Positions 5,378 to 60,104 of a stretch of DNA of 64,000 nucleotides are shown here, piece by piece. A program made the position numbers and the translations under genes. Location of the stretch: positions 1-64,000 of the forward strand of contig JBJCIZ010000028.1 in NCBI GenBank assembly GCA_051294375.1, read 5' to 3'. Under the pieces are notes generated by a model. It saw nothing but the letters and a program-made list of their open reading frames with translations, did not search any database and had not been told where the DNA came from. Source of the DNA: Paraspadella gotoi (taxonomy: Eukaryota; Animalia; Chaetognatha). Position 1 is the stretch's first letter. The number at the start of each line of letters is the position of its first letter.

Positions 5378-5418
<41 letters not shown>

Positions 5419-5658: not shown

Positions 5659-5754
<96 letters not shown>

Positions 5755-5761
5755 TCCCCAG

Positions 5762-5918
5762 GCGTGGACGTCTCAGCCAATCAGGACGAACTGACTGCCA
5801 AAGAGACGTTTCAGCTGGAGTTCGACCACGACACGGGCTGTTGGTACATAAGGACCAATCAGGGCAAATATTGGTCGTTGGAGGCAGCCAATGGGATTCA
5901 AGCGTCGACGGATTCAAG
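5762..5918 (+). CDS. FSCN: Fascin exon
   Basis: GVDVSANQDELTAKETFQLEFDHDTGCWYIRTNQGKYWSLEAANGIQAS (fascin SANQDE...ETFQLE motif); ccag acceptor, AG|GTAAGA donor. Confidence 0.95.
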
Positions 5919-5920
5919 GT

Positions 5921-10604: not shown

Positions 10605-11039
10605 TTTTGAATCACTGCATCGTCAACTTTTACCAACAATAAATCATAAAAGATTAATTTCGAAACAAAGAGACTAAAAAATCTCAGAAGAAGAAGCGAG
10701 AATCGCTTTTCGGCTTCTTTTTATTTCTTTTGTTCAGATAGTCCGTCGGTGGTCAGTGGACAATGGACAATGGACGACGACGACGACGACGACGACTAAG
10801 TAAAAAACAACGAACAATGAACGAGTCAGTTATGCCCATCCTCATTTTTGGCTTCTAAATCTTCGACGTCAACAGTTTTCTGTGTTTTCTCCCGTTTGTT
10901 TAATTTCGAAGAGAAATTAAGAAAAAATAATCACTGTAAACATTCAAAACTAATTTACGACGAGCAATAATCATTGATACAACTTTAAACAAACAAAAAC
11001 GATTAAAAATTCGATTTCTCCCTCGGAAATTTGTAGGAA

Positions 11040-16726: not shown

Positions 16727-18718
16727 ATGGTGGACATTAGCGAGGATAATCCTTCAAATTGTTCGGAACTTGACTTAAATTGTGAATCAGATTCATCGCC
16801 TCGTGGTTGCGAAGGACAAGATAGTGGCGAAAATTTGCAAAGATATGAAAACGAAATTCCCATGAAATGTGAAATTTGTCCTAGAAACTTTAAAAGTATG
16901 CGTCGTTTGAAAGCACATATTCAAACTCATACAAATGAAAAATTGTACGAGTGTGATGTTTGTCACAAGTGTTTTAAATCGGAACAATATTTAAAAAAAC
17001 ACCTATTAATTCATACAAATATGGAATCATACAAGTGTGAACATTGTCAAAAGTGCTTTTCACAGTCTGCTTACCTCAAGCGACATTATCACATTCATAC
17101 AACTGAAAAATTATGCAAATGTGATGTTTGCAACAAAAGCTTTAAGGTAAAAGAACAGTTAAAAAGACACCTTCAAACTCATACTTATGATAAACCATAC
17201 AAATGTGAAATTTGTTATAAGTGCTTTAAATTGAAGAGTTATTTACGGCTACATCTTTTAATTCATACAAATGAGAAATCATACAAATGTGAGATTTGTC
17301 AAAAGAGCTATACATCTAAGCAAAATTTAGAAAAACATAAAAAAACAGCTCATACTGATGAAAGACCATATAAATGTGATATTTGTCACAAATGCTTCAA
17401 ATTAGAGTTTATTTTAAAAGAACATCTTTTAACTCATACAAATGAAAAACAAAATAAATGTGAATTGTGTAATAAGTCTTTTTCCCGAGCTCAATACTTA
17501 AAAAGACATTATCTAATTCATTCAGGAGAAAAACCTTACAAATGCGAAATTTGTCATAAATGCTTTTCATTTCAAAAGCATCTCAAATTGCATCATTTGA
17601 CTCATTCGAAAGAGAAACCGCACAAATGTGAATTTTGTCAAAAATGCTTTTCTCAAAAAGTAGGTCTTCACACACATTTTCTAACTCATTCAAAGGAAAA
17701 ACAATATAAATGTGACATTTGTGAAAAATACTTTTCTTCAAAAATAAATTTGAAAAATCATATTCGAATTCATACACAAGAGAAACCATATAAATGCGAA
17801 ATTTGTCAAAAGTCATTTTCACTAAAACAGTATCTGAAATCTCATCATTTGACTCATTCAAAAGAAAAATCGCACAAATGTGAAATTTGTCAAAAATGCT
17901 TTTCTAATAAAACTAGCCTCAATTTACATTTTTTAACTCATACAAAAGAAAAACCACACAAATGTGAAATTTGTCAAAAAAGTTTTTCACAGAAAAGTAA
18001 CCTAACTTCACATTTGATAACTCATTCAAAGGAAAAACCATACATATGTGAAATTTGCCAAAAACGCTTTTCAAGATATGATGAATTAAATGTTCATCAT
18101 GTAACTCATAGCAATGAAAAACAGTACAAATGTGACATTTGTCAAAAATCCTTTTCACTCGCTCGATGTTTAAAATTGCATCATCGAATTCATACAAATG
18201 AAAAACCATACATATGTGAAATTTGCCAGAAATGTTTTTCTCTGTCTGGAAATCTAAAACTGCATTTAAAGAGCCATACTAACGAAAAATTACACAAATG
18301 TGAGTATTGCCAAAAATTCTTTTCTACTCGTAATACACTAAAAAAGCATCATCTTACTCATGCTAAAGAAAATCCACACAAGTGTGACATTTGTCAAAAG
18401 TTATTTGCACACTCTGCCTTTCTTAAACTGCATTATCAACGTCATACAACAGAAAAATCGTATCATTGTGACATATGTCCAAAATGCTTTTCAACATCAC
18501 AAGATTTGAAAGATCATTTCCGAACTCATGCTGAAGAAAAACCATACAAATGTGAAATCTGTCAAAAGTGCTTTGCAAATAAACAGAATTTGAAAGTTCA
18601 CTACCGAACTCATACAAAAGAGAAAGCATACAAATGTGAAATCTGTCAGAGGGGTTTTTCACATTCTAGTAGTCTCAAGCTTCATTATCACACTCATACA
18701 AAAGAAAAATCGTATTAA
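16727..18718 (+). CDS. Intronless tandem C2H2 zinc-finger protein ZNF-B (663 aa, 22 fingers), nested in fascin last intron
   Basis: 22 consecutive C2H2 units after a ~45-aa acidic leader; a decayed finger (CNIFQL*F*TSRDLKDHNQNHTEEKP*) follows the stop. Confidence 0.93.
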   Translation: MVDISEDNPSNCSELDLNCESDSSPRGCEGQDSGENLQRYENEIPMKCEICPRNFKSMRRLKAHIQTHTNEKLYECDVCHKCFKSEQYLKKHLLIHTNMESYKCEHCQKCFSQSAYLKRHYHIHTTEKLCKCDVCNKSFKVKEQLKRHLQTHTYDKPYKCEICYKCFKLKSYLRLHLLIHTNEKSYKCEICQKSYTSKQNLEKHKKTAHTDERPYKCDICHKCFKLEFILKEHLLTHTNEKQNKCELCNKSFSRAQYLKRHYLIHSGEKPYKCEICHKCFSFQKHLKLHHLTHSKEKPHKCEFCQKCFSQKVGLHTHFLTHSKEKQYKCDICEKYFSSKINLKNHIRIHTQEKPYKCEICQKSFSLKQYLKSHHLTHSKEKSHKCEICQKCFSNKTSLNLHFLTHTKEKPHKCEICQKSFSQKSNLTSHLITHSKEKPYICEICQKRFSRYDELNVHHVTHSNEKQYKCDICQKSFSLARCLKLHHRIHTNEKPYICEICQKCFSLSGNLKLHLKSHTNEKLHKCEYCQKFFSTRNTLKKHHLTHAKENPHKCDICQKLFAHSAFLKLHYQRHTTEKSYHCDICPKCFSTSQDLKDHFRTHAEEKPYKCEICQKCFANKQNLKVHYRTHTKEKAYKCEICQRGFSHSSSLKLHYHTHTKEKSY

Positions 18719-20768: not shown

Positions 20769-21780
20769 TAATTACTGTCTCTTCATATTTATATGAAGAA
20801 GAATGAATATATTTTATTTGCATACTGTGAAAAAGTTCCGGCCCGACGTCCGTTTTTGCTCATGACAAAACCTGTGACGACGACGACAACGACGACGACG
20901 TTCTCAAAACCCAAACCATAAACTATAAACTATACAAGGACAAAAATTCAACCATACGTTGTTAATTATTATTATGTTAAAGGAAACCGAGGAATAAATT
21001 CTTTCAAGAAAACAAAAAGATTTGTTTCCTTATTTTTTTCCCAAAATTGAAACTGCTAATATTTTTTTTCCCCAAGAAAATCTGAGCCTCGAAATTCCCA
21101 AAATTTAAGCAGACGATAATTTTAACTCGTTTCTTGTGTGGATGAAAATGACAATAGTAACGACGACGATAACGACGATAACAACCTGGTTTTTTATGGT
21201 CAGTTTTTCCTTCCCTCACTCACTAGGCTTTTGTGATTCGAAACTCTCCGTTAAAAACTATTCTTTCGCCAAAATATTCACAAGTTCACAAGCTCACACA
21301 TCAAAAAGAAAAAAAAAACGAACTGTAAAAAACAAACATTCTTTTCATCGTTTTATCTTTTCATCGTTTTAACTGTCAAATTGTTTCTTTTATTTCAGAA
21401 AAAAATAAACTTCTAATTCGCCAAACCAACGTCTTTAAGAAATACTTCAACGACCCGTCTTAAAATTAAATCAATAAGTAACTACTTTGGAAACCCTGGT
21501 CACAAAGAATTGGGTCGTTGATTAAGTTTAATCATATTTATACTAACTACTTAAAAAGTCGATAACAAAGGCAAAAAAGGCTTCTACGTTTCTTCAACGA
21601 ATTACAAATATTCAAAACAATAATAAACGGACGATATACTTGAAGAAGATACAAAGAGGTTAAAAATGTAGCAGATTCGAATGAAAGAAGGAGAAGTAAA
21701 GGTCAGCTGCCGACGACGACGACGACCGAGATTTCACAGTATTTCGGTGAAAAGGATTCTTTGTGACTGAGGTTATCTTG

Positions 21781-23091
21781 ATGACCGAAGTCAACTCGAG
21801 TCGCCAGACTCCGATTATTTTAATTACGAGATCCGTATTTATCCGATGCTCTCTTAAAATGTGCGTCACTGGCAAACTGGATCCTTCACTGAATTCACAA
21901 TCTAATTTTCAATGTGATATTTGTAATGAAAGTTTTTCTTCTGAATTAGAATTGAATCAACATTCATCGATTCGCGATGAAGAAGAAATTAAAAGTTTTT
22001 GCGTTAAAAATACAGAATTAGAACATAAACCAAAATCATATCAAAGTGAAATCTGCGAAAAATACTCGGCCACGAAAAAAAATCTGAAAATTCATTATAG
22101 TATCCGTACTAATGAAAAAACGTACCGATGCGAAACATGTCAGAAATGTTTTTCATACAAACAAACTTTAAACCAACATTATTTGACTCATACAAAAGAG
22201 AAACCATACAAGTGTGATATCTGTCAAAAGTGCTTTTCACAAAATGGTAATCTTAAACTTCATTATCGAACTCATACAAAAGAGAAACCATACAAGTGTG
22301 ACGTCTGTCCACAGTGCTTTTCACATAGTAGCAATCTTAAGGAGCATAATCTAACTCATTCTCAAGAAAAGCCTTACAAATGTTAGATCTGTGAAAAGGG
22401 CTTTTCACAAAATGGTCATCTCAAACTTCATAATCGAACTCACACAAAAGAGAAACCTTACAAGTGTGATATCTGTCAAAAGTGCTTTTCAAAAAATGGT
22501 AATCTTAAACTTCATTATCGAACTCATACAAAAGAGAAACAATACAAGTGTGATATCTGTGAGAAATTCTTCGCAATTGTTAGAGATCTAAAGAAACATT
22601 ATCGTACTCATACAAAAGAGAAACCATACAAGTGTGATATCTGTGAGAAATGCTTCGCACTTGTTGGAAATCTAAAGAAACATTATCTAACTCATACAAA
22701 AGAGAAACCATACAAGTGTGATATCTGTGAGAAATGCTACACACTTGTTGGAAATCTAAAGAAACATTATCTAACTCATACAAAAGAGAAACCATATAAG
22801 TGTGATATCTGTCAAAAATGTTTTTCACAAAATATTCATCTTAGACATCATTATCTAACTCATACAAAAGAGAAACCATACAAGTGTGATATCTGTCAAA
22901 AATGTTTTTCACAAAATAGTCATCTTAAACCACATTATCTAACTCATACAAAAGAGAAACCATACAAGTGTGAACTCTGTCAAGGGTGTTTTTCACAACT
23001 CGGCAATCTTAAAAGGCATCATAAAACTCATGATGAAGAAGTAATTAAAAATGAAACGCTTTTGAAACTAAATTCACAAAATATTTGTTGA
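21781..23091 (+). pseudogene. Intronless C2H2 ZNF-C with a single in-frame TAG at 22384-22386 (truncated gene, young pseudogene or readthrough)
   Basis: The frame continues past TGT-TAG-ATC-TGT through 8 otherwise intact fingers to TGA at 23089-23091, with no frameshift. Confidence 0.8.
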
Positions 23092-23524
23092 AAGTGTTTG
23101 TCAAAATCTACAATAAGACGGTTTTTGCAGTTTTAATGATTGATTCTTTTAGTTAATACTGATTGTATACATATACATAAATTACATAAGTATTTTTTAC
23201 ATTTTTTTCTTTTCTGTATTATTCCTTTTAGAAGATAAATTTACTTAGAAAATATAAAATCAAATAAAGATATGTAGCTGCTAGAAAATAAAGCAAAGAA
23301 TCTGTTGTTAGAAAGAATCTGTTGTTCTGACAAAGAAAGAGTAAGTTTGTCTGTATCTCTTCTGGTTGACGAATCAAAGAGGAGATTAGCCGGTTTCTGA
23401 TAGTTTGAGATTGATCATTGGTTGATGGTTAATGTCGGAAAAAAATATTATTAAATCGGTTATTTATTAATGAATTTGTAAGAAAAATTAAAATAAAATC
23501 TCAGTAGTGAAGAGACATTGATAA

Positions 23525-23712
23525 GTGTTATGTGTTAATGACAAAACCGTTCAATATAAGCAGTCCCTGAGCTTTGGATCAGGCTGTAACACCGTGTTAC
23601 AGGCGAGTTAAGCGACCCGTAACTTTTAACTGCTAAGTCGGCCCCTGGACTAGAACCCCGGACGTTTGGGTTGGGAGGCGAATGACTTGCCTCCGGCACC
23701 AATGGCCGCTGG
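23525..23712 (-). mobile_element. tRNA(Gly)-derived SINE, full head
   Basis: Minus strand reads GCGGCCATTGGTGCCGGAGG (A-box-like)...TTCGCCTCCCA...GGTTCTAGTCC (B-box); body matches 20603-20768. Confidence 0.75.
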
Positions 23713-23917
23713 TGAACGGTTGGTGAATTTTAGTCCATCATAGTAGGAAGTTTTTGATAATACGCGATGAAACACTTTGAAACTAATATTACTTATTTTG
23801 CTCTGTATATGTCGGAATGTATGTACGAATAACTTTTAAAATAAAGCTTTTGTAAAATTTATTCGGTAAAAGCGGGAACATCTCGTTATTTCGAGAGAAA
23901 GCGAGAAATGTCATTTG

Positions 23918-24020
<103 letters not shown>

Positions 24021-25237
24021 ACAGCACCTTATAATCATATAACATGTCATATCAAATAAAATCAAACCAAACCTGCCTCATTACATTTTTGCCTCATGAA
24101 CTTCGCCCAGAATACAAAAAATTCCATGACTCAGCAAAGTCGTCGTTCGTCGTCATTTGGTGGCAGTCGTCGTCTTCATCGTCGTCGTCTTCATCGTCGT
24201 TGTCTTCATCATCGTCGTCGTCGTCGTCGTCGTTCGTCGTCATTCGGTCGTCGTCTGCATCGTCGTCGTCTTTGTCATCGTCATCCTGCCGTCTCGACTT
24301 TTCGAACGACGAAGCGTCGTGCGTCATCTGGTTGTTGTTGTTGTCGACAAAAAAAAAGAGCATCTTTCACCCGATGAGTAATCATCATTTAACTTAAGTT
24401 ATAATAGAAAAATGTAGAAAACGTCGGCTATTTTCTAACCCTAAGGTCGCGCGTTCGTGGCGTCGTCCCTCCTTATTTTTCAGAGTATTGATTATTCTTC
24501 TTTAATTATATAGAATAATAATTGTTGTTAATAACGCCCAGAAACTTTAATAGGAATAACGAGAATCTTTGGAAATCCAACTACGAACTGGAGTTAACTT
24601 TTAAAAAATCGGCTTCGGTGACACTTAATTATTAATTTCGTATTAATTAATTAATTAATTAATTAATTAATTAATTAATTTCTTCTAAATACTTGACAAT
24701 TTACTTGGTCAAAAAATTTTCTATCGCTTAAATCAAGAAAAAAAAAGGAATATTTATCATTGACGATTCCATCATTATCATTATCATCATCTTCATTTAT
24801 CATAATCATAATAGTGTCGTCGTCGTCGTCGTCGTTGTTGTTGTTGTCGTCCAAAATTCATAATTGTTTACCTCCTCTTTTCGCCTATAATTCGCGGGGC
24901 CCCGCTACAATTCGAAGTCCAGCGAGAGAGAGAGAGAGAGTTTTTCTTTCATTCTTTCTTTCTTTCTTTGTTTCTTTGTTTCTTTTATTCTTTCTTTCTT
25001 TCTTTCTTTCTTTCTTTCGTTCTTTCTTTCAGTCTTTCTTTCAGTCTTTCTCTTTTTCTTTTTAACCCTTTTTCTTCCCTCCTAATTAAATATAACTAAT
25101 TTTCGACTCCCTACTTTTAAATTAACCTTTTACATTCTTCACAAATTGGCCTCACAGATTCTCACAAGTCTCACAGCGTGAAAAGCAGAAAGGAACCGAC
25201 TTTTTGTTTGATTTCCTTTGATTACTAATTTTTGCGG

Positions 25238-25363
<126 letters not shown>

Positions 25364-25601
25364 CACTTTTTTACCTCCCGCAATTTCACGCAACCAAAAT
25401 ACTTTTTCCCAAAAAAGTTTCTCATTTCATTTTTATTTGTATTCATATCTCTCGTTTTTTTACAACTTTTTTTTTGAAATCAAATTGACCAATTTTTGTG
25501 TTTGAGGTTTGGAAATCGTCATTGTCGTCGTCGTCATCGTCGTCGTCGTCGTCGTCCATTTTTATCACGATCGTACAAAATGGTTTCAACGCCCAAGAAT
25601 C

Positions 25602-25636
<35 letters not shown>

Positions 25637-25967
25637 AAATCAGAAATAGTAACAGTGTAAAAGATTTGAAAACGATAACCAACTAAAAACCAAACTATTA
25701 AAATTCAACAAAAACAAAAGACACTAACGTTTAAAATAGAATCATGAATAAAATGATATTAACTGATGCAAAAGAAACTACAAAATTCAACGTTTACAGA
25801 TCAGATGTCAAAATCATGAAATCATAAAAATCATAAAAACCTAATACCTAGAACCCTTCAAATTCCAAACAGTAAACGATCGAAAATATTAGTATCTCCG
25901 ATACGAATTTCCTCGTACTGGAATATGCAAATGAGATTTAAAGATATTTTCTTCAATTTCATTCCAG

Positions 25968-26173
25968 GCGGCAACGGAAAGTACTGGTCCTTGGAGGAGG
26001 ACAAGTCCATCTCGGCGAGCGGTTCCATCCCCGTCGACTTCTTCCTCGTCCTCCACGACGACGCGTTCCTGTCGTTGAGGACTAGAGACGGTGATTTCGT
26101 CCGCGGGGAACAATCGGGGATTTTCAAGGCGAACGGGAAGGAGGTGGAGAAGGCCACGTTGTGGGAGTATTGA
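25968..26173 (+). CDS. FSCN: Fascin terminal exon
   Basis: ttccag acceptor in phase 1, matching the donor at 8559; GNGKYWSL...GDFVRGEQSGIFKANG...ATLWEY*, the canonical fascin C-terminus. Confidence 0.95.
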
Positions 26174-26287
26174 GGGAGGGAGGGAGGGAGGGAGGGAGAG
26201 AGAGAGAGAGAGAGGAAAGGAGAGGAGAGAGAAGTGTAAAGATATATTGAGCGAGATAAAGAGATAAAGAGAGGAAGAGAAGTGGGC

Positions 26288-26556
26288 AGGATAGTCTGAG
26301 GGATAGAAAGAGGAAGGGATGGATAGTCTGAGAGATAGAAGAGGAAGGGATGGATAGTCTGAGAGGAAGGGATGGATAGTCTGAGAGATAGAAAGAGGAA
26401 GGGATGGATAGTCTGAGAGATAGAAAGAGGAAGGGATGGATAGACTGAGGGACAGAAACAGGAAGGGATGGATAGTCTGAGAGATAGAAAGAGGAAGGGA
26501 TGGATAGTCTGAGGGATAGAAGAGGAAGGGATGGATAGACTGAGGGATAGAAAGAG
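26288..26556 (+). repeat. ~32-bp purine-rich minisatellite (~8 copies) in fascin 3' UTR
   Basis: Unit GAGGAAGGGATGGATAGTCTGAGAGATAGAAA. Confidence 0.9.
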
Positions 26557-28026
26557 GTAGGGAAAAGTTGAGAGGACGGAGAAAGTAGAAGATGAGAAGG
26601 AAAAAGCTAAAAATAGCGAAAGAGATGAAGCTTGAAACGAAATTTTCACCTACTGTTGTAGACGACAGTCTGGAACAAACTTCCACTAGTAAAATTAACA
26701 TTTTGAAGACAAATTAGATTTGATGTCGATTAAGGTTGAGACTTGACTTTAGTTAATTTGTAATTAGATACAAAACATATACATACTATTTGTGAATAAG
26801 ACTCTGTTGGAATAAAGACGGGGGAAAGAAATGATACGTCGTACAGGAAATTTCGTACCATAAAGACTTTTTTTTTATTTACTTCCCTTCGACATTTGGC
26901 CATATTATCTAATAACGCCCAATTTCTGACTAAATTTTGATATTCAGATTGAGGGTTTGGGTTTAAGGGGAGTTGCTATGGATTTTGTTCAGGGATAAGA
27001 GCTAAGGATTAAAGTATTAAATTTAGGATTAGGGTTAAAGATTAGGGTTAAAAATCACAGTTAAGATTTAAGGTTTAAGTTAGGGATCAGGTAACTGATT
27101 AGTGTTCTGGTTAGATTTTAGATTTAACAACAAATTAGTCTTATATATTATATTTAAAAATTGAATTCAAAAAAACAAAAATTGGACGCTTTTGGAAAAT
27201 AGTGCCCGATATTTTTACTTTGAAAACAACGCATCGTTTGTTTTCGGAATAATTTGCTCAGTTTTGTCGTTTTTATATTCTTATCTGTGACAAAAGCTTA
27301 GTTTTATTATTATAGTTTTTTTTTTAACTAATGTACAAATATAACCAAGAGAAAATTTATTTGTAGCTTTTTTTTTCGTTTCTTCATAGGAGAGAAATAT
27401 TTTTATTCACTGCTTTTGATAATGTTCAAAATGCAATTGACAAAGAGAACTTTTAGTGCATGATGGAATATTTGTTACATTTAAAATTTAAAAAAAAAAA
27501 TACGCGAATTTTTCACACAAAAAATGCTTATATATCACAGGTAAAAATTATTGTATAAATACGTATAGTTCGTAATTTGATGAATCTCGAATATTTTTTT
27601 TTTTATAGAAGAGCGGCCTTATGAATTTGTCCCCCTGACTAGTCAAACGAGTTAACGAGTTAAACTGGCCGAAAACAATAAAAATTATCTTTAAAAAAAT
27701 AATTATAAATAACTTTTAAAAAAACGGACTCCCTGTACATTGTTACGACAAAATATCTTTGTTTTGTCTAGCGACGAGGATTAGCGAACTTTGGCTTTTA
27801 TTGTCAAAAAAATACTTTTTACGGCTAAAAATAAAGTTGGTTATATTTTTTTTAATCTTTTTCATGTTTTTGTGCCGTAATTTTCTTTAATATTTTTCGT
27901 TCATACCTTTGGCGAATAATTTTTTATTTTAATACATTTTCATATTAATAGTCTTGATAATTTAAACCTTATTAAGTTTTTTTGCCAAGAAAATTTATTT
28001 TTCGCCTTAAGTTTCGTTTGCCAACC

Positions 28027-28138
<112 letters not shown>

Positions 28139-28444
28139 CAGCGGTTGACGGTCTTCTAGTATAATTCGGCACAAAATGTCATGTTTTTTGTTCTGTTTCG
28201 TTCGAATCCTTTCTGTTTTCTTCTGTCATAGAACATTATTGTTTTAAAAACGAACAAACGATACCGTTTTACATTCAAATGTGATGCTTAGCGCTTCTAC
28301 TATGTTTTGTATGTGAATGTGATTATAAATAAAAGAATAAACAAATGAATAAAGAAATGATAAAAAATAAAACAATTAAATAATTCAATGAAGTATATAA
28401 ATAAATAAATAAATATATAAATAAATAAATAAATAAATAAATAA

Positions 28445-28528
<84 letters not shown>

Positions 28529-28943
28529 ACTTTAGTGTACGAGAAAGTAGATTTTTAGCAATTACTTTTCTGCCCCGCATAATGTTTTTTTTCCTAAATA
28601 GACCTTTTTTTTTGTAAACTGACTGACTTTTATTTCCAAATCTTGCTTTGTGCGTTTTTGTATTATTATTAAAAATACTATTATTATTAAATTAGTACAT
28701 ACGGTGCATCCGAAATCAGTGTTTTCTTTTTATTTTACGTAAATTGAGAAATTAGAAGTTCAGTTAAAATGACATTTTGAACAAATGGAGGAATAAGTCG
28801 ATTTTACAGCCCCCCCAAAAAAACACAACTATTATTTCACAAATCACGTCCAATCACTTCGAATCATCACTTCGAATCATCTCTTATCACCTCTCTTGAT
28901 TTCTAACTCATCACTTCTGCTACTTACCCTTTGNNNNNNNNNN

Positions 28944-29141
28944 GCGCGCCAATTCCACGCCGTCTCCTATGGGCGCGGTCGGATAACGAGCGGCGCCGGC
29001 GACGCCGTCGGCGAAGGGCAGTTCCACCTCGTTGAAGACGGCGTCGTCGAAGGCGGAGGAGTTGAAGGTGGCGCCTGGGGTGTCGAGGACGCGTTGGAGG
29101 GTCGAGGCGAAGAGACGCCATCGGGGGGCGTAGTAATCTTT
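28944..29141 (-). CDS. NAGLU: NAGLU terminal exon (partial, bounded by N-gaps)
   Basis: KDYYAPRWRLFASTLQRVLDTPGATFNSSAFDDAVFNEVELPF...RYPTAPIGDGVELAR, matching the NAGLU YYxPRWRLF...YPxxPxGDxVxLA pattern. Confidence 0.9.
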
Positions 29142-29690
29142 NNNNNNNNNNNNNNNNNNNNNNNNNNNNNNNNNNNNNNNNNNNNNNNNNNNNNNNNNNN
29201 NNNNNNNNNNNNNNNNNNNNNNNNNNNNNNNNNNNNNNNNNNNNNNNNNNNNNNNNNNNNNNNNNNNNNNNNNNNNNNNNNNNNNNNNNNNNNNNNNNNN
29301 NNNNNNNNNNNNNNNNNNNNNNNNNNNNNNNNNNNNNNNNNNNNNNNNNNNNNNNGAGAGAGAGAGAGAGATTTTGATGTGATGTGATTTGATTGATTGA
29401 TTGGTTCCATGAGATGCGATTGACTCATTTTTTTATTCATTCAATTATTCATTCATTTCTTTCTTTCGTTGATTGATTGATTGATTGAACAAGCTTTGGT
29501 GGTTTGAGGCCTCCATCACTTTTACAAGATAATGACATAGCAGGCCCTGCAAGCTTTCAATCAAGACACACGTTTATTCATCCCCAAATACCTGGTGTAA
29601 TGTTTCAAAGAATGTTTCAATTGTATGAAAAAAAAACCCGATCAATTAACTAATTGATTAACCAATTGATTAATCGTTTAGTTAACTCAC

Positions 29691-29876
29691 CAGCCCCGCC
29701 CACTGCTTGTTGGCGTAGTCCCTCAGACTTCCGCCCGGACTCCAAATCGTCACCAGCGTTCGCGCGTTGACGTCCCAGCGACGGCGTTCTGCCGCGTCGA
29801 CGCCACGCCGCCGCGCCGCCTCCGTCCAGCTGCCGAGGAGGAATCGAGGGTCGGAGGCGAGGAGTCGGTCGAGATC
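29691..29876 (-). CDS. NAGLU: NAGLU penultimate exon (intact copy)
   Basis: DLDRLLASDPRFLLGSWTEAAR...NARTLVTIWSPGGSLRDYANKQWAGL; aag acceptor, GTGAGT donor; 186 nt. Confidence 0.95.
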
Positions 29877-30346
29877 CTTGGAGGGGGAAGGATGGGGGGG
29901 TTGTGGAAGAGGAGCAAAAGAGGAGGGGTGTGGAAGGAGGGGTTCAGTATGATCTTAATTTGGGAGAAAAAGAGTCATTCATATTTATAGTCATATTTAG
30001 TCATGAGTCATAATTTGTCATTCATAATTATATTTTTAATTATTCTCAATTATTTGTCACATAGCCGTGGCAAAAATTAATATAATTCCATATCGCAAAT
30101 TTTAAAGAACGGCGACATAAAAAGCCCAAACGCTCAATTATCTTTTATCATCAATCAAAATCTTCATAAAATTACTAAAAATAAAATCGCCTAAAACAAC
30201 TGCTTTTTATTGAAAACCTTGACATTTAAATTCGCCGTTAAAAACTGCTTATATTATTTTTTCGAAGAGAGATTCGAACCACCCTGCAATATGCAAATGG
30301 CTTTATGATACCGATAATGGCGAAAAAGAAAAAAGAGAGAAAGATC

Positions 30347-38640
<8,294 letters not shown>

Positions 38641-50210: not shown

Positions 50211-51162
50211 CGATTAATTACGCAATTTCTTTCTTATTCAATATAATTCACCAACAATATTCATAATTTATATATATCTATTTTAATTCTGGTGATAATG
50301 CAGGTCATAGTTTTTATGGTGGTTAGAGATTTTCTCTAGAAGCCGATCCGGTTAAAAAGATAAAAACATACAAATTTAAAACTTTCGAAGGAACGTATTT
50401 TTGAGATCTGTTTTAGACTCACAGTTTAACTCTGAAGAAGTTTCTCCTTTACAACCGTCGGCCCACAGTGTGAACTTTCTCACTCTCTTTCTCTCTTTTC
50501 TCTCTTTCTCTTCTAAAAAAAAAAAAAAAAAAAAAAACTTATCAAAAAAGAAAATTTTGGTCGGATTGAACCGGAAAATTTCCTCTGCAAAGCATCAGTT
50601 AACTGTCGGCTGTAGCCAGCTTGGCCCAATGCCTACATTGTGCGAAAAGTAGGATCAATAGGACCATCCTAGTGGTAGACGATACACACTGCACATTGCA
50701 CAATGAGGCTTTCGTCGACATGACAGCGAATCATTGCATTTTGAGCTCAGCCCCTCATTTGGTAATGTAGAAAATTAAAAAAGAACATGGAAGTCTCGGG
50801 AAAAGATATGAAAAATGTAATGAATGTGAATGAAACAGGAAATTAGATTTATAGATTGACAAATTGATTTTTTTTTCAAACACCTGTCCTCGAAAAATTA
50901 ATAAATTAATCAAAGCGATCATAAATTAATTTTTTCTCTCTCTGATTAAATTCTCTTCTCTCTCTCACTCTCTCTCTCTCTATCTAGTCTTTTCTGCATT
51001 GCACTGGCCGCCAGATGGGTGTTTCCACAATTATTTCAGTCATGGTGATTTTCTCAATATTGTAGTGTTTTTACGACTTGAGAACGACATTATATTTATT
51101 GTAAAAAAAATTTTATGTGGAGTTATTGGATTGTTTTTCCATGGCCATCGTTTTAGGGACAC

Positions 51163-53349
51163 ATGGCCTTGCATGATATTGCAATGTTGGGGCATCATTG
51201 TAAAAAAGATGCCACAAAATATTTGCGTCTCTGGAATGGTCCTGGACGAAAAACAGCCACAACGATTTTCTGTATGGCAGGTCTGGCCAACAGCTTGGTT
51301 GCAATCGACGACCATCTGGACAGAATCTATGGGATGGTGAAGTCTTCAACAACTTTGGCAGAATCATTGTCCATTCCCAAGAAAGAGTTGGTCGCGACTC
51401 TGGATTTATTGCATCTTCTTTTGGAGACTTTTCCTCAAATTCTTCTTCAAGCCGCCGCAATTGTTGTCTCTTTTACTAGCGGGACTGACAAGTTCTGTTT
51501 ACCATTTAAAGAAAATGACTATGATTTTCGGAATTATTCACTTATCCAACTGAACAGTGATAAGACCATGCCAACCCAATGCACTTGCATCTTATTACAA
51601 GAGAGATCTTTGATTGATAGGTTTTCCTGTAGCTGGGAGCTTGATCACTATGATATCATAGCTTCTTTTACACTTTCAACCGTAGGAATCACAACTGCAG
51701 CCACGACATATCGCGGCTTCACTGTGGCATCTTTACAAGGAACGCTCGGAATCTTTCAAGGAGTCACTGGCATTGTTGTCTTCATTCTTTTTATTTATGT
51801 TTGGGCACTGAATTATTATCTTTGGTTGGTTCTTCTCACGCCTCTGGCTATCTTAAGAATCTTTACAATTCCCGAGTTACTTGATATCTTTCGTCTCCGG
51901 TTTGTGTCTTCACATAAGGGGACAAAGATTTTTTGTTTTACTCCATTTCTAATAATGATATCTTGTTCTGCACAAATGGTCTCAATTTTTTTTCACCTGG
52001 ACAGGAACATGAGAATAGAAACAACCCTGACAAATGTTTATGATTTAGAAAGTGATGGTACAAAAATGGGCCTCCAAACAGATACAGAAAAAGGAAAACA
52101 CAGTCCACGTTTCAAAACCACACGGGATACTAATGACACATATGATTGCTTTGTAATGGATGGTGTTGTAGATTATTCAAGATGGGAAGAACAGTTCCCA
52201 GCCACATTCATGATGTCATGCAAAGCTTTAAAAAAAATGATACCTGAAATAGAATTTTATAAATCATTTACTGAATACAATGTAGGAAATTATAAACTTC
52301 TGAAACCATCCCACGAGACGATTCTTATCCTACTACTAATCGATGTCTTTTTGGGTACTCTGTATGTTTCAACAATTTTCACTTTAGGTAATAAAATAGC
52401 AAAACTCATCAATATTTTAATTGCATTGCTGCCGCTTGTTGCCATAACGGTTGTCAATCTGTCCCAAACCTTAAACCACTTAATTGTAAGCAAAGAATCC
52501 GGTCTTTTTCAATGTTTTCTTGAGCCTTGTCGGCATATAGTAGATTATAATAAACTTTTTGCCACTAAATTGAAACTATACAGAAGCTTTACACTTTACT
52601 CGAATATTGCATACACATCTCCGGTATTATATATGAGTCTCCTGATGTTGGAAGCGTTTAGTGGAAAAGCATTCATTAACCTGACGGCGAGAAAGATCCT
52701 TGGATTCATTGGGCTTATTGCTTGCTCTCTGCCTTTTTGTGGATGCCTCATTAAAAGTACAATGTATACTCGTCAAAAAATTTGTTCTGATCTTATTGAT
52801 TACAGTTGGTCAAGTCCTTGGTATCTGCAGCCACAAAAATATTACGCTCATCATATAACCTCGCTTATCAGGATAAATGAATATTTTTTTTTAATACTTA
52901 ATATTTCTTTTTGCCCTTTTTTTACATTTTCATATTTAATTCTGATGAAGGTTATCAAGAAGAAAAAAATTTTCATTAAAGCACTTTTTTTTGTAGTTGT
53001 AACTGCTTTTCATTGTTGTCTTTTTGAGATTTTAATTATTTCAAAGAAACCCAAAGCGAGCCAGTGTGAAGATTTCTACTACCCACTTTACGATTGGTAC
53101 TATCCAAATGATAATCGGCATGCAATTCTTTCAACACAATTACCAGCAGAGTCGCCTAATTTTATATTCATGCTTTCAGTTTCAGCAGAATTTCGTTATC
53201 AAGCTGAACGTAAAGATGGTAGAGAAAGAATTCTTCTCCTTTATAATATTTTTTTAAAATGCATTGACAGAGAACAATACAACAGTTATGAAATTTTTAA
53301 TATATTATCTTTGTTCTTACCTGTTATGTATGCTGTAATAATCCATTAA
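51163..53349 (+). CDS. Multi-pass membrane protein A: XK-related-like N-half plus divergent 7TM-like C-half, intronless; disrupted 5' extension from ~51015
   Basis: 728-aa ORF with many hydrophobic segments; LDLLHLLLETFPQILLQ resembles the XK-family ExxPQxxLQ motif; colinear with the paralog at 55875-60104. Confidence 0.75.
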   Translation: MALHDIAMLGHHCKKDATKYLRLWNGPGRKTATTIFCMAGLANSLVAIDDHLDRIYGMVKSSTTLAESLSIPKKELVATLDLLHLLLETFPQILLQAAAIVVSFTSGTDKFCLPFKENDYDFRNYSLIQLNSDKTMPTQCTCILLQERSLIDRFSCSWELDHYDIIASFTLSTVGITTAATTYRGFTVASLQGTLGIFQGVTGIVVFILFIYVWALNYYLWLVLLTPLAILRIFTIPELLDIFRLRFVSSHKGTKIFCFTPFLIMISCSAQMVSIFFHLDRNMRIETTLTNVYDLESDGTKMGLQTDTEKGKHSPRFKTTRDTNDTYDCFVMDGVVDYSRWEEQFPATFMMSCKALKKMIPEIEFYKSFTEYNVGNYKLLKPSHETILILLLIDVFLGTLYVSTIFTLGNKIAKLINILIALLPLVAITVVNLSQTLNHLIVSKESGLFQCFLEPCRHIVDYNKLFATKLKLYRSFTLYSNIAYTSPVLYMSLLMLEAFSGKAFINLTARKILGFIGLIACSLPFCGCLIKSTMYTRQKICSDLIDYSWSSPWYLQPQKYYAHHITSLIRINEYFFLILNISFCPFFTFSYLILMKVIKKKKIFIKALFFVVVTAFHCCLFEILIISKKPKASQCEDFYYPLYDWYYPNDNRHAILSTQLPAESPNFIFMLSVSAEFRYQAERKDGRERILLLYNIFLKCIDREQYNSYEIFNILSLFLPVMYAVIIH

Positions 53350-54638
53350 ATTCTAAGGATAATTTAAAAAATATAACATAAAAAACTAAAAAAAGAAATG
53401 TTTTTCCTTGATTTTTTTTCTACATGAAAAATCAGCTGAAGAAATATTTCCAAATTGGTAAAAAATAACTAATCAATAACTAATCAATCCATTTTAATGT
53501 TTTTTCAGGTTTTTATTTTAAATATGATTATTGAACCGCTAATTAACGAACAAGTTTGAACAAACAACGTCGGATCTGCTCACGGTTTTTAAGCGGTTAG
53601 CAGCTAATCAAATAATTTATTAAGTAATTAATTAATTATTTAATCAACTAATTTATTAATTATTTAACTTTTAACTTTTAATTTTAATTACTTAATCAAA
53701 ATATTAATTGATTTAGAGTAATTAGTTAGTCTCTCTCTCGCCCTCTTTCTCACTCTTTAATCCTCTTTTCCCTCCGCCATTCAAATTAAATAATTAATAA
53801 TTAATTAATTAAATAATTAATTAATTATTTTTGTAATGAATTATTTAATTAGAGTTGCAGTTTATAAAAATAAAAAAGCAGATTTTTTATGTTTTTTTCC
53901 ATTTAAACTCAGTTCCATTGGGACATCGTTTTTTAAAATTTATCATAATTTGATGTTCTGATATTATGTAAATGATTTACCGACAAGATTTAGCCTAAAT
54001 TATAGGGGGTGGACCTGTAGATGATGCAATGTTCTCAATTTGACGTTGCGTCAGGTTTTAAGTTCCAGTGACGACTCTGGCCGAGTCATTGCCCGTAATT
54101 GAGTAATCTGCTGTTCAATCCTACAGATCCGACAAAGTGAATCTTAGAGCCGGAATCTGCTATAAGCAGATCCGGCTAAAAATGTTAAAAATAAACTAAA
54201 AAAAACTAACAAAAAAGGTTTAAAATTATATAAAAAGGAACCATAACTTATGGCATAAGAAACAAATGTTCAAAAATAAATGTAAAGTAGAAACAAAAGA
54301 CAAAAATCAACAAGAAACCCAAAAAAGAAAATAAAAGAAACTAAGGGAAAAAAAAGGAAAATAACCAACAGAGATACTAGAATTCTTATTTCTCTTTTTT
54401 TTTCGTATTTTGTCTGTTTTTTTCCTCTTTTTACACTATATTGTTTACTTTTCTCCTGTTTTGTTTCTTTTCAGCCTTGTTTTGTGTTTTGTGTTTTGGT
54501 TTTTTTTCTTCTGAGGTCGCGACTTACTGTGTCCGAGGAATCCAATTACATCCCGATCTCCGTTTTCTTAGTTTCCGTATGTAATAGGAAGCGAGTGAGC
54601 GAGTTTGGAATACTAATCAGGATGCCAGAAAAGGGGAA

Positions 54639-54689
<51 letters not shown>

Positions 54690-54809
54690 ACACAATCCAC
54701 CGACTTTAAACTGTCAGTCACTTCCTTCAATTTTTTTTAATGAAAAATTTTTCAACTTATTTAATTTTTTTCCCTACATAGTATCTAAGCTTATGTTTTA
54801 GACTGATTT

Positions 54810-54848
<39 letters not shown>

Positions 54849-54992
54849 CTTTCTTTGTCTCTCTCTCTCTCGCTCTCTCTGACGCGAAACTTCCGGTTTC
54901 GACTGATGCTTCATGTTTCGTCTTCGTTTCAAGTTTCTTTCTGTTTTCTTTCTTTCTTTCTATCTTTCTTTTTTTTTCTTTCTTTCTTTCTG

Positions 54993-55260
54993 TGGATAAG
55001 GCGCTACGTGGGCTGAAGATGACTGTCCGTAACTTCTATAACCCCCTCTAGAAGCCATGGAACGGGTCCCTGGGCTTGGAACCAGGCTTGAGGGTTTGCC
55101 ATGCCCCCAAGGCGGCTTACGGCCGTCCTCACGCTTCCCGCAGGGTAGGTACCGGGTTGGGATTGAACCCAGTACCTAGTGGTCATGAGCTGATGGCTTT
55201 ACTCAATGAGCCACCGGGTCACAACTGAAAGTGTCATGATTCTAGGCAATGCCCGACTAC
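54993..55260 (-). mobile_element. tRNA(Met)-derived SINE-like element, copy 2
   Basis: Minus strand: A-box-like TGGCTCATTGAG, CTCATGA loop, B-box GGGTTCAATCCC; inserted in (TTTC)n. Confidence 0.72.
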
Positions 55261-55323
55261 TTTCTTTCTTTATTTCTTTTTATCTCTCTTACTTTCTTTC
55301 TTTCTGTTTTCTCCCTGTTTTTT

Positions 55324-55359
<36 letters not shown>

Positions 55360-55874
55360 TTTATATCTCTTACTTTCTCTCTTTCTTTCTCTCTTTCTTT
55401 CTTTCATCCCTCTTCCCTCTCCATATTTTAATTTCCTCTCCTTCAAGAATAAAAATATTTTTTCTTTTCAATGCGCATATATTTGTCTCCTATCTTTAAT
55501 ATCGTGTTTTTCTTTTTAACCCAATAATAATTATTCCTCATTTATGATATTTTTTGGATTGCTGCTTAATCACAAGATATTTTTAAACGAGGCCGTCCTT
55601 TATCGAAATAATAATACAACTAATGAGGCCTATATTTTAATAATGGATTTCCGTTTGAAGCAGAGAATGATGAATTACTAAATAATTTGACGTTCATTAC
55701 GCTGGACACCGAACAGTAGACAGCTTAGTATCTAATAACTTTTAATATGCATTTAAAAAAAAGATTTTGAAAATTTAATTTGAAATGCTTTATTTTAATC
55801 CCTTAAGAGCCAGTGTTTTGTCACTGGTTAATTAGCAGGGTATCTTATATAATTTTGTATCTCAGTATTGACTT

Positions 55875-57094
55875 TTAATAATACACAAACGCACACATTG
55901 CTGGCAACCAAAATGAAATCAAACATAATGAGTCATATTTTCCATACATTCGGTTCTCTGTAAACTTCATAAAATCCTCAAAAAATTTTGGCAAATCCGT
56001 TATCATACAGCTTTCTAAATTTGTTTGTATTTCCAACTGTTCGATAAATTTTTTTACAAAAACCGAACCCGGGGAATCCCACTGAGTTTTGGGCAAAAGC
56101 AGTTGACGAATTCTATGGGGATTTTTCAGATAAATATTCGCGTAATCGTTGTAAGATTCAAGCGTTTCAAGCCGCCGCTGGGTTAATGCATAAACATGAA
56201 GGTAAGATATAATAGAAAAAACAATGATAGATGTAGATATTTTAACAAAAATGACCCATTTTCTTTTGAGAAACGTTTTTGCTAAAAGGCTCATCCAAAT
56301 CGTTAAAGGTGAGAGAGATATAGCGAGTTTAGCCCGAAACATGTTGCCTGCTAAACGGTAAATGATTCTTGCTTTATAATATTTAAAAATTTGTTCAAAA
56401 CTATCGATTTCATTACATCCGGATACGAAATATGTTTCTACCTTCAGCCAAAAATAATCGGTAGTTTTCTTTATTACCAGAAATAGTAATGGTATTACGG
56501 CTGCTAAGCAACCTATAAACGAAAAAACTTTTTTATCAGTAGCGGATAAAAGTTGATAAGATTTTTTAGCGTATATCTCTAAAAACAAAAGTGAAAAATA
56601 CAATGCCATAAAAGTGTAAAAGAAATTTGTAAAAGCCGTGAAGCTTTGATAAAGAGATTCCTTCGAATCTATCAACGGATGCAGACACTGTTTATCCTCG
56701 CATTGTTGCAAACCAAATTTATTAGATGCCTTTTTATGAGACAAATCGCTCCGGACGTTGAGGATCAAAACCGCCAATAACGTAACCTGGGCAACGATAA
56801 ATATCAAAAATTTCCCACGTTCTCTCCTTTTGACGAAATGAAGAGCGACGTAAAATATTCCCAGACACGAATCCACGAGGGATAAAACCAAAATGCTCAT
56901 TCGATTCGGCAGCAAGAACTTGTAATTGCCGATAGCGTGGGATCTCCCGTATACGAGGGTTTCCTTGGGAGGTTTCCATTTGAAGTTTGTGCAAGAAACG
57001 ATGATGTCCTCAGAAATAATTATTTCCCATCTTTGCTTATGGATCAATCCGATTGTTGAAAAGCAGACGTTAGGCCTCCTTACTTTAATCCGAT
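55875..57094 (-). CDS. Membrane protein B terminal exon (7TM-like half)
   Basis: VCFSTIGLIHKQRWE..VSC aligns with A DCFVMDGVVDYSRWE..MSC; IGNYKFLLP with VGNYKLLKP; YQSFTAFTNFFYT with YRSFTLYSNIAYT; WLPAMCA with FLPVMYA. Confidence 0.8.
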
Positions 57095-57415
57095 CTAGGT
57101 CGATTGGGGGGTATGGGTTTAAGTTAAATTAGGGAACCTCCCAAAATGAAATTTTATACATTTTTGTCAAAAAAATTAAATTGATTAATTTTTTTTAAAT
57201 ATCTTGATACCTTAGCTATGATTATTTTTATATTTATTTATAAATAAAAATATTACAAATTTAAACACAAGTTTGAGAAAGTATTAAATAGTATCATAGT
57301 AATGTAAATTTTTTTTATCAGTTTATTACCGATAGATCAGAACATTTTTTAAAATATATAAATCCATTATATACTTATACATTATATACAGTTGAATTTT
57401 TTCGCTTAGCACTAC

Positions 57416-57623
57416 CTAAAAATAGCAGTTGCATATCAAAGTAAACTAATTTCGGACTTTGAATCAAAGTCGCGTCAATCTCTCGATTTTTGATCCCTAA
57501 AAATTTGGAATCGATTCCCTTTTGTTGGTCAACAACAGAAAAGAAGGCGAGAAGAAAAGAGTTCCATGAGATCATGATTATAAATTGGGCGAAAGACGGA
57601 CTGCCCCTCTTTTCAAGTTGTTT
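57416..57623 (-). CDS. Membrane protein B internal exon (donor position tentative)
   Basis: cacag acceptor; SFAQFIIMISWNSFLLAFFSVVDQQKGID aligns with A CFTPFLIMISCSAQMVSIFFHLDRNMRIE. Confidence 0.65.
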
Positions 57624-57795
57624 CTGTGGGAACAGAAGTAAAATTTTGAAAAAAATTATTATTTCTTCCGTTATCTCTTTCTTTCTGCATCTCTCTCTTT
57701 TTCCATTCTGCATCTATCTCTCTTTCTCTCTGTCTTTCTCTCTTTCTATTTCCCAATCTTTTTCTTTGTCCATATCTGTTCTCTTTCTCTCTTTA

Positions 57796-57856
<61 letters not shown>

Positions 57857-57884
57857 ACTCTCAATCTCTCTCACTAAAACTCAC

Positions 57885-58092
57885 TTTAAATACATTTTTC
57901 TTCAATTCTCCAAACGTAAAAATCCTCAACAGAGCCAGTGTCGTGAGCAAAGAAAACCACGGAGAAATTTTTAAGGCCCACACGTAGATGACATAAAAAT
58001 TGACAATTATCGCGCATACGCCTTCGAGTGAACCAAACGCGACCTCTATGGTCGCCATGTGGCAGCGAGACCGCGCGGCGAAGATGGCCAAA
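57885..58092 (-). CDS. Membrane protein B internal exon
   Basis: ttcag acceptor in phase with the upstream exon; VIYVWALKISPWFSLLTTLALLRIFTFGEL aligns with A FIYVWALNYYLWLVLLTPLAILRIFTIPEL; GTGAGT donor. Confidence 0.8.
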
Positions 58093-58811
58093 CTGAATTA
58101 GTAGAGTGGAGTGAAAATTGTACAATTTTCTAAAATCTGAATTGAGAATTCAAAATTTAAAGATAAAGATTTTTCTCATTGTTTTATTTAAAGAGAAAAC
58201 AAAGTTTATTTCTTTACAAACAACGGATTTTTTATTTTAAAAAACCGTGTTTCAACTTTAACGCGGTGATAAAGACTGAAAAACTTATCCTTTTTCTTAA
58301 TAAAAAAAACGTTTTTTGTAAACAAATAAACTGTTTTCTCTTTTACTAAAAACGCAATGAAAAAGAGAGTCTTAACACAATGTCTATAAAAAATTTTAAT
58401 GAATTTTTAAGAAATTTTACAAATAGTAAATCATATTTGTAATATGATGAGCTAGAATTTTAAAAATACAATTCCTAAATTATAAGTGGCTTTTTAAAAA
58501 TATTTATCATAATTAAATTTTTTTTGTAATTTAATCTTTTTTCATTATCTAAATACAAAATATTTGTTATCTACTTTAAAAGTTTTTTAAAATTAGTTTT
58601 TAAAAAAGATTATTATATTTTTTTATATATATAATTTATAAAAAAATTAAAACTTGCTGCCAGAAATTTTACAAAAACAATAATTTTTTACAACTTATAT
58701 GAGCTATATAAAGCTAGTTCTTTATACATAAACCCAAAAAATATCAATAATATACTTATTAAGAATTAAAATATACCTTAGATAAACTTAGATTCCAAAC
58801 TTTTTATTTAC

Positions 58812-59197
58812 CCTATTGTAGATATGCCAAAGGAAATTATGGTTTCATAATCTTGTACGTCCCAAGAGCAAGTGTAAACATTTTTAGTATATGGATGACA
58901 CTCGCAATGCCGTTTCGTCCTTGTCAGTGATCCATTTCCATCGATTTCGAATAAAAAGCTTCCTTGATTGTCGATTTCCAAGCATTGCTCATTGGCTCCG
59001 CTTGTAAGGGCCAGAATGAGTGCGGCCGTTTGCAAAAGCATCTGGGGAAACGCCTCGAGAATGATGTGCAGAAAATCAAGAGATTGGATCAATCTAATCT
59101 TTGTTGTCCTTTTCGTTGTTGCTGTCATTGCATCTGCCCAATCATCCATCTCACAATCCAGAATGATTAGCAAATGTCCTAAACCTGTAGCGGCCAT
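58812..59197 (-). CDS. Membrane protein B exon with XK-like motif (5' boundary unclear)
   Basis: SLDFLHIILEAFPQMLLQTAALILALTSGANEQCL...CSWDVQDYETIISFGISTIG aligns with A; GG|GTAAAT donor. Confidence 0.75.
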
Positions 59198-59343
59198 TTC
59201 TCAGGTTTGTATATATGTATAAATATAGCCTACTGCATAAATTGCTAAATTTAGAATAAATTTTTTTATACATTAATGTTCAATGTAATAATGTACAATA
59301 TTAATATTAGTATTAATGTATTAATGTACATTAATGTTCATTC

Positions 59344-59585
59344 TGTGGCGGTATATTCACACTGCTTCACGTCCACCATCCTTCAGCCAAATCAGAGGGG
59401 GAACACACTATCCCAGGCGTAGTGTTCCATCCACAGTCCTAATGACTTCCCTCTGCTTTGGCAAAGCGAGACCGTCCTAGGGTAACTGCGTCAGTGACTT
59501 GATCCGTCACTGAGGGTCGGAAGCCCCCAAAAGCCAACAGTGAGATGCCCCAATGGGCATCACAAGCAACCCGGCTGTTGCCATA
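59344..59585. mobile_element. Solo-LTR-like element (242 bp) with 4-bp TSD ATTC
   Basis: TGTGGCGG...TTGCCATA; ATTC at 59340-59343 and 59586-59589; homologous to 18940-19195. Confidence 0.75.
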
Positions 59586-59768
59586 ATTCCTCACTTTTAG
59601 AATTTTAATAAAAGATTAATTAAGAATTTTTACTACGCTTTAGTGTTTAATCCCAAACCAAAGCATGAGGCGGGCCAAAAGCCCAGTTTCAAGTCCAGAA
59701 CCTGTTCCATAGCTGCTAGCGACAGCTAAGGAAATTACAGGAGACATCTTAAGTCAACTTAGTGTGTC

Positions 59769-60104
59769 TCATCCATAATGATGATCCTTTCTTGTAAACC
59801 TGGAAATTGCCCGATACAAACCTAAAAGACAGAAGACCACTGTGCCTGCGACTCGCCAGCTGCCACCAACAAGACGGGGATAAAACATTCCCTCTTTTGC
59901 CATCTCGCGCCAGACCACTGTGCCAGAAATGATGCCGTGCATGGACAAAATAACGCCCATGGCCACGCCCAAATAGCGCTCCAAGTAGAAGTCCTTTTGA
60001 TAAAAGCGAATTGTCGTTCTGATGTCGGTAACGAGGTCGGCTACGTTGAGAACAACGACGAGGACATTGATGAAAAGTCTGCTGAGATTCATTGTTCGGG
60101 CCAT
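59769..60104 (-). CDS. Membrane protein B first coding segment (XK-like TM1-2; 3' boundary unclear)
   Basis: LNVADLVTDIRTTIRFY resembles the XK-family DxxTDxxxxxxYY start; YPRLVGGSWRVAGTVVFCLLGL aligns with A YLRLWNGPGRKTATTIFCMAGL. Confidence 0.65.
   Translation of the reverse strand: MARTMNLSRLFINVLVVVLNVADLVTDIRTTIRFYQKDFYLERYLGVAMGVILSMHGIISGTVVWREMAKEGMFYPRLVGGSWRVAGTVVFCLLGLYRAISRFTRKDHHYG

Follow-up and report, generated by a model that had tools for sequence, protein, structure and literature searches.

Two paralogous membrane proteins of the chaetognath Paraspadella gotoi: a possible fusion of an XK-like scramblase module with a seven-helix, receptor-like module

The window analysed here is a stretch of 64,000 nucleotides of the chaetognath Paraspadella gotoi (assembly GCA_051294375.1, contig JBJCIZ010000028.1, positions 1 to 64,000, forward strand). 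It carries two homologous genes, called A and B, for membrane proteins built of two parts: an N-terminal part (the N-half) that resembles the XK-related (XKR) scramblases and a C-terminal part (the C-half) of seven helices. The genes lie on opposite strands, tail to tail, with 2.5 kb between them. An earlier note on this DNA had described two paralogs with a multi-helix N-terminal part, a cysteine-containing linker and seven C-terminal hydrophobic segments, and tblastn, hydropathy and alignment bear this description out. No introns are present in A, and four are needed in B. The features of the two genes are as follows.

51015..51174, + strand: broken 5' part of gene A, with the first two XK-like helices (frameshift-aware alignment to B exon 1; tblastn expect value, E, 2e-5)
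51157..53349, + strand: intact intronless frame of gene A, 730 codons (728 amino acids from Met 51163), with both halves
51424..51450, + strand: ExxPQxxxQ motif of A in the XK-like third helix (PF09815 positions 121-149, E 0.0075, below the cut-off)
51994..52320, + strand: hydrophilic linker of A with a conserved cysteine pair, probably extracellular
52321..53346, + strand: seven-helix module of A, without a C-terminal tail
59822..60104, - strand: B exon 1, with the start Met and DxxTD at 60038-60024
58812..59184, - strand: B exon 2, with ExxPQxxxQ at 59056-59030 and the four-cysteine loop (PF09815 E 0.048-0.14)
57885..58092, - strand: B exon 3, a helical hairpin
57416..57623, - strand: B exon 4, the putative last XK-side helix and the start of the linker (weakest homology; placed from splice signals and frame)
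55875..57094, - strand: B exon 5, the cysteine linker and the entire seven-helix module (acceptor at 57094 or 57082)

When the protein of A is searched against the window with tblastn, B is recovered in several segments (27.6% identity over A residues 329-726, E 7e-29; 29.5%, E 5e-14; 44%, E 6e-8), and the two proteins are 31% identical over 683 aligned residues. Both halves of A lie inside the same frame, and a stop-free frame of 730 codons is expected by chance with P of about 4e-22 at the window's base composition. Gene B was modelled as five exons and four GT-AG introns (60104-55875, - strand), giving 763 amino acids without a stop; at its last acceptor, the frame is kept by two of the 11 candidates. 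Codon identity between A and B is 0.45, 0.59 and 0.34 at positions 1, 2 and 3, against 0.26-0.28 expected from composition. The second position is the highest in all four regions compared, N-half, linker and C-half included, which argues that both halves are kept as protein. A and B are a real, constrained pair of two-part membrane proteins. The fusion within one frame that the earlier note had proposed is seen in the DNA of A, and in B it rests on modelled exons.

The natural start of A is probably Met 51015, from which a frameshift-aware alignment tracks the first exon of B end to end. Aligned to B, the segment 51015-51174 contains four frameshifts (near 51052, 51063, 51074 and 51174) and one stop (near 51104). 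These are five lesions in 160 bases, and the following 2.2 kb have none. Because the lesions are clustered in this way and the window also contains indel-rich duplicates, we favour an assembly or local sequence error over decay as the probable source of the damage.

The duplicates belong to a tandem block of about 8 kb that is present twice (window 22395-30321 and 30340-38640), with 95.5-97% identity and many small gaps. The longest duplicate block, of 5752 bases, has 163 gap openings, and a zinc-finger frame in the second copy of the 8-kb block is fragmented. The arrangement looks like a false duplication or an uncorrected long-read fill.

Relatives of these proteins are few. A phmmer search of 1.84 billion protein representatives at E <=0.001 gave two matches, P0001 (4e-6) and P0002 (3e-5), both of which match the N-half of A only. 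Each is a single sequence, and the contigs they come from are short (2456 and 1709 bases). Over a limited length range, a profile search with the N-half found only the same two among 7999 candidates, a word-based protein search with A found none among 7996 at E 0.01, and a profile search with the C-half found none among 7997 at E 1. For the C-half, phmmer and the profile search thus leave the other paralog as the sole relative. Locus scans of metagenome contigs, viral contigs and prokaryote genomes yielded no confirmed relative. The tail of P0001 was considered as a possible start of the linker and rejected, since shuffled sequences did as well in 928 and 1279 of 2000 cases.

All four introns of B (59821-57095, - strand) are absent from A, and P0001 and P0002 are single frames across the sites of the first three. 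Both junctions of the first intron read AGGTTT. Introns may have been gained in B, or A, P0001 and P0002 may be retrocopies. A 170-base contig from a sequencing run guessed to be RNA matches A at 51415-51584 with one difference, short of both the second half and the 5' end. A second short contig of the same run matches 42 bases of A (51281-51322) with five differences and then diverges; it possibly stems from a third paralog.

The likeness of the N-half to XK proteins lies mainly in two short acidic motifs. The earlier note had listed ExxPQxxLQ and DLVTDIRTTIRFY for both paralogs; the former is present in A and B, but the latter is found in B only, and its counterpart in A falls within the broken 51015-51174. 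A DxxTD motif lies in the first helix of B, P0001 and P0002, where it supplies a pair of acidic residues four residues apart (D23/D27 in B; starting at D113 in P0001 and at D56 in P0002). In ExxPQxxxQ, the residues E, P, Q and Q are invariant in all four sequences (A, B, P0001 and P0002), including the Glu and Pro (ExxP) that would break helix 3. According to the available excerpts of PMC12334663, the acidic "stairway" of XKR8 consists of D26, D30 and E141, with a D26-E141 spacing of 115, and helix 3 of XKR4 is broken at a proline three residues past the glutamate (E313/P316). The corresponding spacing is 115 in B, 117 in P0001 and 116 in P0002. Among 20,000 shuffles of each protein, E..PQ...Q turns up in 0.05-0.09% and D..TD in 3-9%; the latter motif is therefore weak on its own. 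Across the four sequences, the stairway motif comprises the best-kept positions.

Profile and fold comparisons point the same way at low strength. The Pfam family PF09815 matches the ExxPQ helix of both A and B over the same profile stretch (119-149) with E 0.0075-0.14. In an Atlas search with A, an XK-bearing cluster ranked second (0.83; the family is on 16% of its members), a low recognition that is weak on the tool's own scale. By definition, the XK fold has two repeats, with eight helices and three re-entrant ones in all. The N-half of B has eight hydrophobic segments, interpreted as seven helices and a re-entrant hairpin; the AlphaFold2 model of A alone, with a mean predicted local distance difference test score (pLDDT) of 40, is too poor for fold comparison. 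After the ExxPQ helix follows a four-cysteine loop (C, CxC, CxW; A 51496-51630 and B exon 2) that is invariant in all four sequences and is likely a small disulfide-bonded domain on the outside.

Judged from these sequence features, XK ancestry of the N-half is highly probable. The earlier note's XK assignment is upheld by motif identity and spacing, the sub-threshold PF09815 matches and the weak Atlas lead, but not by any significant profile or fold match. A and B are therefore not filed as PF09815 members; the XK signals are each weak but in agreement. If instead both assignments were wrong, and A and B belonged to a quickly evolving family of multi-pass membrane proteins with short acidic motifs that look XK-like by coincidence, every XK signal would also stay below curated thresholds, as found here, and the low confidence of both structure models (pLDDT 40 and 43) would fit. 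Such a coincidence is very improbable: in three intact sequences the two motifs have the expected helices, order and spacing, and XK is indicated by Pfam as well as by Atlas.

The N-half is followed by a linker roughly 105 residues long, in which both proteins have RWE and a conserved cysteine pair (C329/C368 in A, C353/C392 in B). The C-half has seven hydrophobic segments in B; in A, six are above threshold and the seventh was placed by alignment. With helix limits set by hand, the short loops of both paralogs (5-13 residues) are 1-2, 3-4 and 5-6, which are basic (lysine/arginine fraction 0.22-0.62); the long ones are 2-3, 4-5 and 6-7 (41-46, 45-46 and 82-85 residues), with a fraction of 0.11-0.17. 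Hydropathy and loop charge predict that the C-half of both proteins has its N-terminus outside and its C-terminus inside, the sidedness that G-protein-coupled receptors (GPCRs) show. Reading the N-half as seven helices and a hairpin also places the linker outside, which agrees with this orientation. Both chains end right after helix 7, with no tail. Outside loops of 41-85 residues and the lack of a tail are unusual for GPCRs. The topology of insect gustatory receptors was rejected for the C-half, as the basic loops include 1-2 and 5-6.

The earlier note had called the C-half a degenerate rhodopsin-like (class A) receptor. Its seven helices and GPCR-type sidedness hold, but the class A motifs and any Pfam match to a GPCR family are missing. 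None of the three motifs DRY, CWxP and NPxxY (listed in the available part of PMC9747925) is present in either C-half, apart from P..Y in helix 7 of A. At the positions where class A receptors carry Asn (helix 1) and Asp (helix 2), both paralogs have other residues; matches of the GN and LAxxD type lie outside the first and second transmembrane helices or in a single paralog. No GPCR family (7tm_1, 7tm_2) was listed in Pfam up to E 10 for the whole halves or for 12 fragments of the C-half, in a search whose HMMER filters drop weak matches. Class A ancestry would suit S-x-x-x-P in helix 7 of both paralogs, P-x-x-Y in A, the acidic residue that ends helix 3 and the proline that ends helix 4. Against the missing motifs, the absent 7tm_1 match and structural rows that list more class B1 receptors than other GPCRs, it is quite improbable, and the label "rhodopsin-like" is not supported.

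What weak signal there is leans towards class B or Methuselah (Mth)-like receptors. This likeness was noted before the Foldseek rows for the C-half described below and was later compared with Methuselah-like sequences in the accessible part of the supplement of PMC4768249. By eye, the register of helix 1, intracellular loop 1 and helix 2, the end of helix 3, the proline of helix 4 and the start of helix 6 fit, and the helix 1-helix 2 stretch of B aligns gap-free to Drosophila Mth. The class B-type remains in the C-half are a relaxed helix-3 pattern and the helix-4 proline only. The helix-3 pattern, chosen after the fact, is present in each paralog, and shuffling either one 5000 times yields it in about 3% of cases; two further relaxed patterns that were tried arise readily by chance (14-70% of shuffles). 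An AlphaFold2 model of the C-half of B, built from a two-row alignment, reached a pLDDT of 43. With a C-half model, Foldseek placed class B1 receptors in 15 of the 43 rows listed (best rank 2) and other GPCRs in two. VIA-align put generic bundles on top; in all, five fold searches with models of A and of the C-half of B, these two included, found generic helical bundles with no significant match. Atlas gave no usable match for the C-half of B. On sequence grounds, the balance tilts modestly towards GPCR ancestry of the C-half, and a class B/Methuselah-like origin is favoured as about twice as probable as class A.

A different origin of the C-half is doubtful, though it is the weightiest competitor. 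The protein could be XK-derived with a C-terminal extension unrelated to GPCRs, the first "receptor" helix being helix 8 of an XKR, set behind a long loop on the outside, and the next six belonging to another or a new fold. XKRs have eight helices (PMC12334663, excerpts), and only seven and a hairpin precede the linker here. The lack of a GPCR family match in Pfam or PDB sequences, of the canonical motifs of both classes and of a tail, and the long outside loops, would be natural for such an extension. It does not explain why the short basic inside loops alternate in GPCR fashion, nor why both paralogs keep the relaxed Mth-type helix-3 pattern, with the caveat of its late choice. An origin of the C-half as an internal, second XK-like repeat was rejected (hhalign probability 0.06).

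The best explanation is a chimeric receptor-scramblase: a module of likely XK derivation, fused to and, on this view, regulated in cis by a seven-helix module of likely GPCR derivation; we give it a probability of roughly 0.4. Given XK and GPCR ancestry, it appears reasonably likely that scrambling has been retained under control in cis.

Several observations weigh against this explanation. Neither half has a significant profile match in Pfam or among PDB sequences, and no XKR or GPCR chain appeared in the PDB sequence searches up to E 10. The best PF09815 score is 15.7 bits against a cut-off of 24.8, covers about 30 of 337 profile positions and came from one of 21 fragments; an unrelated Pfam family reached E 0.0088 in the search that gave PF09815 E 0.0075. 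P0001 and P0002 have no XK match in Pfam, the first stairway Asp of A is unreadable owing to the broken 5' end, and the spacing from D to E is not fixed among XKRs, since it is 188 in XKR4 (PMC12334663, excerpts). Neither C-half contains GWGxP, QG, HGK or D[IL]W, and PxxG is found in A alone, there at the wrong place. The Foldseek rows for the C-half have E of at least 0.5 and root-mean-square deviations of 12-28 Å with a model of pLDDT 43, and 14 of the 15 class B1 rows are GLP-1R. The checks that the earlier note had proposed thus gave neither a PF09815 match above cut-off nor a 7tm_1 match for the separate halves, and models of pLDDT 40-43 gave no significant structural match to an Xkr or a GPCR. 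Furthermore, this genome is so far the only source of the fusion, because the relatives cover the N-half only and the end of P0001 is not linker-like.

We infer the mechanism at every step; A's frame, the acidic motifs, the helix order, the loop charges and the constraint are read from the sequence itself. For each protein, some 14 membrane crossings are predicted. In XKR4 and XKR8, the membrane is thinned by acidic residues in the N-terminal repeat, and restraint comes from the C-terminal repeat and the tail (PMC12334663, excerpts). The XK module of A and B, with seven helices, a re-entrant hairpin and its N-terminus inside, would keep this membrane-thinning stairway. Its odd helix count would put the cysteine linker outside, where it may act as an ectodomain for the seven-helix module. 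The latter probably does not signal through G proteins, as the signature motifs of classes A and B are lost and the chain ends after helix 7. It would instead sense an outside ligand or lipid and pack against the XK module, standing in for helix 8 and the inhibitory C-terminal helix of XKRs; sensing would release the scrambling part without caspase cleavage. The full version is a tentative and rather unlikely proposal: an animal family, not described before, of ligand-gated scramblases in one chain, whose class B/Methuselah-derived sensor replaces the caspase switch, so that an outside cue exposes phosphatidylserine on living cells without G protein or protease.

A and B may alternatively be lineage-specific GPCRs that signal through G proteins, of class B/Methuselah or chemosensory origin, with the XK module as a non-scrambling scaffold, chaperone or lipid sensor. 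The GPCR-type topology with basic inside loops is compatible with this, and paralog identities of 26-30% with very different outside loops fit ligand diversification; if the 5' damage of A is real, the first stairway helix was lost while the remainder stayed intact. The XK stairway is, on the other hand, the most conserved feature across the four sequences, and the absence of a tail, a helix 8 and a DRY-type Arg, with inside loops of only 5-13 residues, makes G-protein signalling of this kind unlikely.

If the chimeric receptor-scramblase is real, an outside signal would control lipid flipping within one protein. The regulation of XK scramblases is described as unsettled (PMC12334663, excerpts), and such a protein would bear on how they are activated in living cells without caspases. 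A natural fusion that keeps the stairway and swaps the regulatory C-terminus would make it possible to ask how much of the XK fold is enough for scrambling. It would also be a second kind of chimera between a membrane module and a seven-transmembrane (7TM) domain, beside GPR155. Should the C-half not derive from GPCRs, it is still a conserved membrane domain of 340 residues with no relatives in the libraries searched.

Upstream of gene A, the window contains fascin exons and C2H2 zinc-finger genes. The fascin gene spans 3169-26170 (+ strand), with Pfam matches at 3169-5919 and 25940-26170. Between the last exons of this gene, three C2H2 zinc-finger frames (11037-12794, 16721-18715 and 21751-23088) apparently lie nested, also on the + strand.

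Among known systems, A and B share with XKR8, XKR9, XKR4 and CED-8 (PF09815) the DxxxD of helix 1 and the ExxP of helix 3 at the spacing given for XKR8 in the excerpts, as well as a hydrophobic segment that separates helix 2 from helix 3, at the place expected for a re-entrant hairpin. Unlike XKRs, they reach a long linker after only seven helices, have a four-cysteine loop behind helix 3, and carry a further seven helices where XKRs have helix 8 and the C-terminal tail. The D-x-x-D-[GSA] site is absent from A and occurs once, internally, in B, and both proteins stay below the Pfam cut-off.

Methuselah-like GPCRs (7tm_2) resemble the C-half by eye from helix 1 through intracellular loop 1 to helix 2 (GK), and at the end of helix 3, the helix-4 proline, the start of helix 6 (FxK) and helix 7, as far as the accessible sequences go. 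A and B differ from them in lacking HGK, D[IL]W, AWGxP, QG and the cysteine at the start of helix 3, in their much longer outside loops and in giving no profile match. According to the available part of PMC4768249, the Methuselah family has frequently been expanded and lost across animals.

A fusion of XK and 7TM modules was absent from the titles and abstract openings of the literature matches listed (subscription papers and domain-architecture databases lay outside this scope) and from the accessible part of PMC9333335, and the main text of a GPCR survey of choanoflagellates and relatives does not mention XK. The nearest printed layout found is GPR155/LYCHOS, in which a multi-pass, transporter-like membrane module precedes a class-B-like 7TM domain and G-protein signalling is unclear (PMC12716839 and bioRxiv 10.1101/2024.09.24.614577, both in part). 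GPR155 has a 10-helix PIN-type transporter, GWGxP, QG and a DEP domain, none of which is seen in A or B: no such Pfam family was found for A or the exons of B, and no PDB sequence matched. It may serve as a precedent of layout, by analogy and not by homology. The oomycete GPCR-bigrams, which join a 7TM domain and an effector in one chain as a proposed signalling shortcut (PMC6033456, in part), are a looser parallel: their effector is a soluble enzyme and nearly always C-terminal, whereas A and B carry an N-terminal membrane module.

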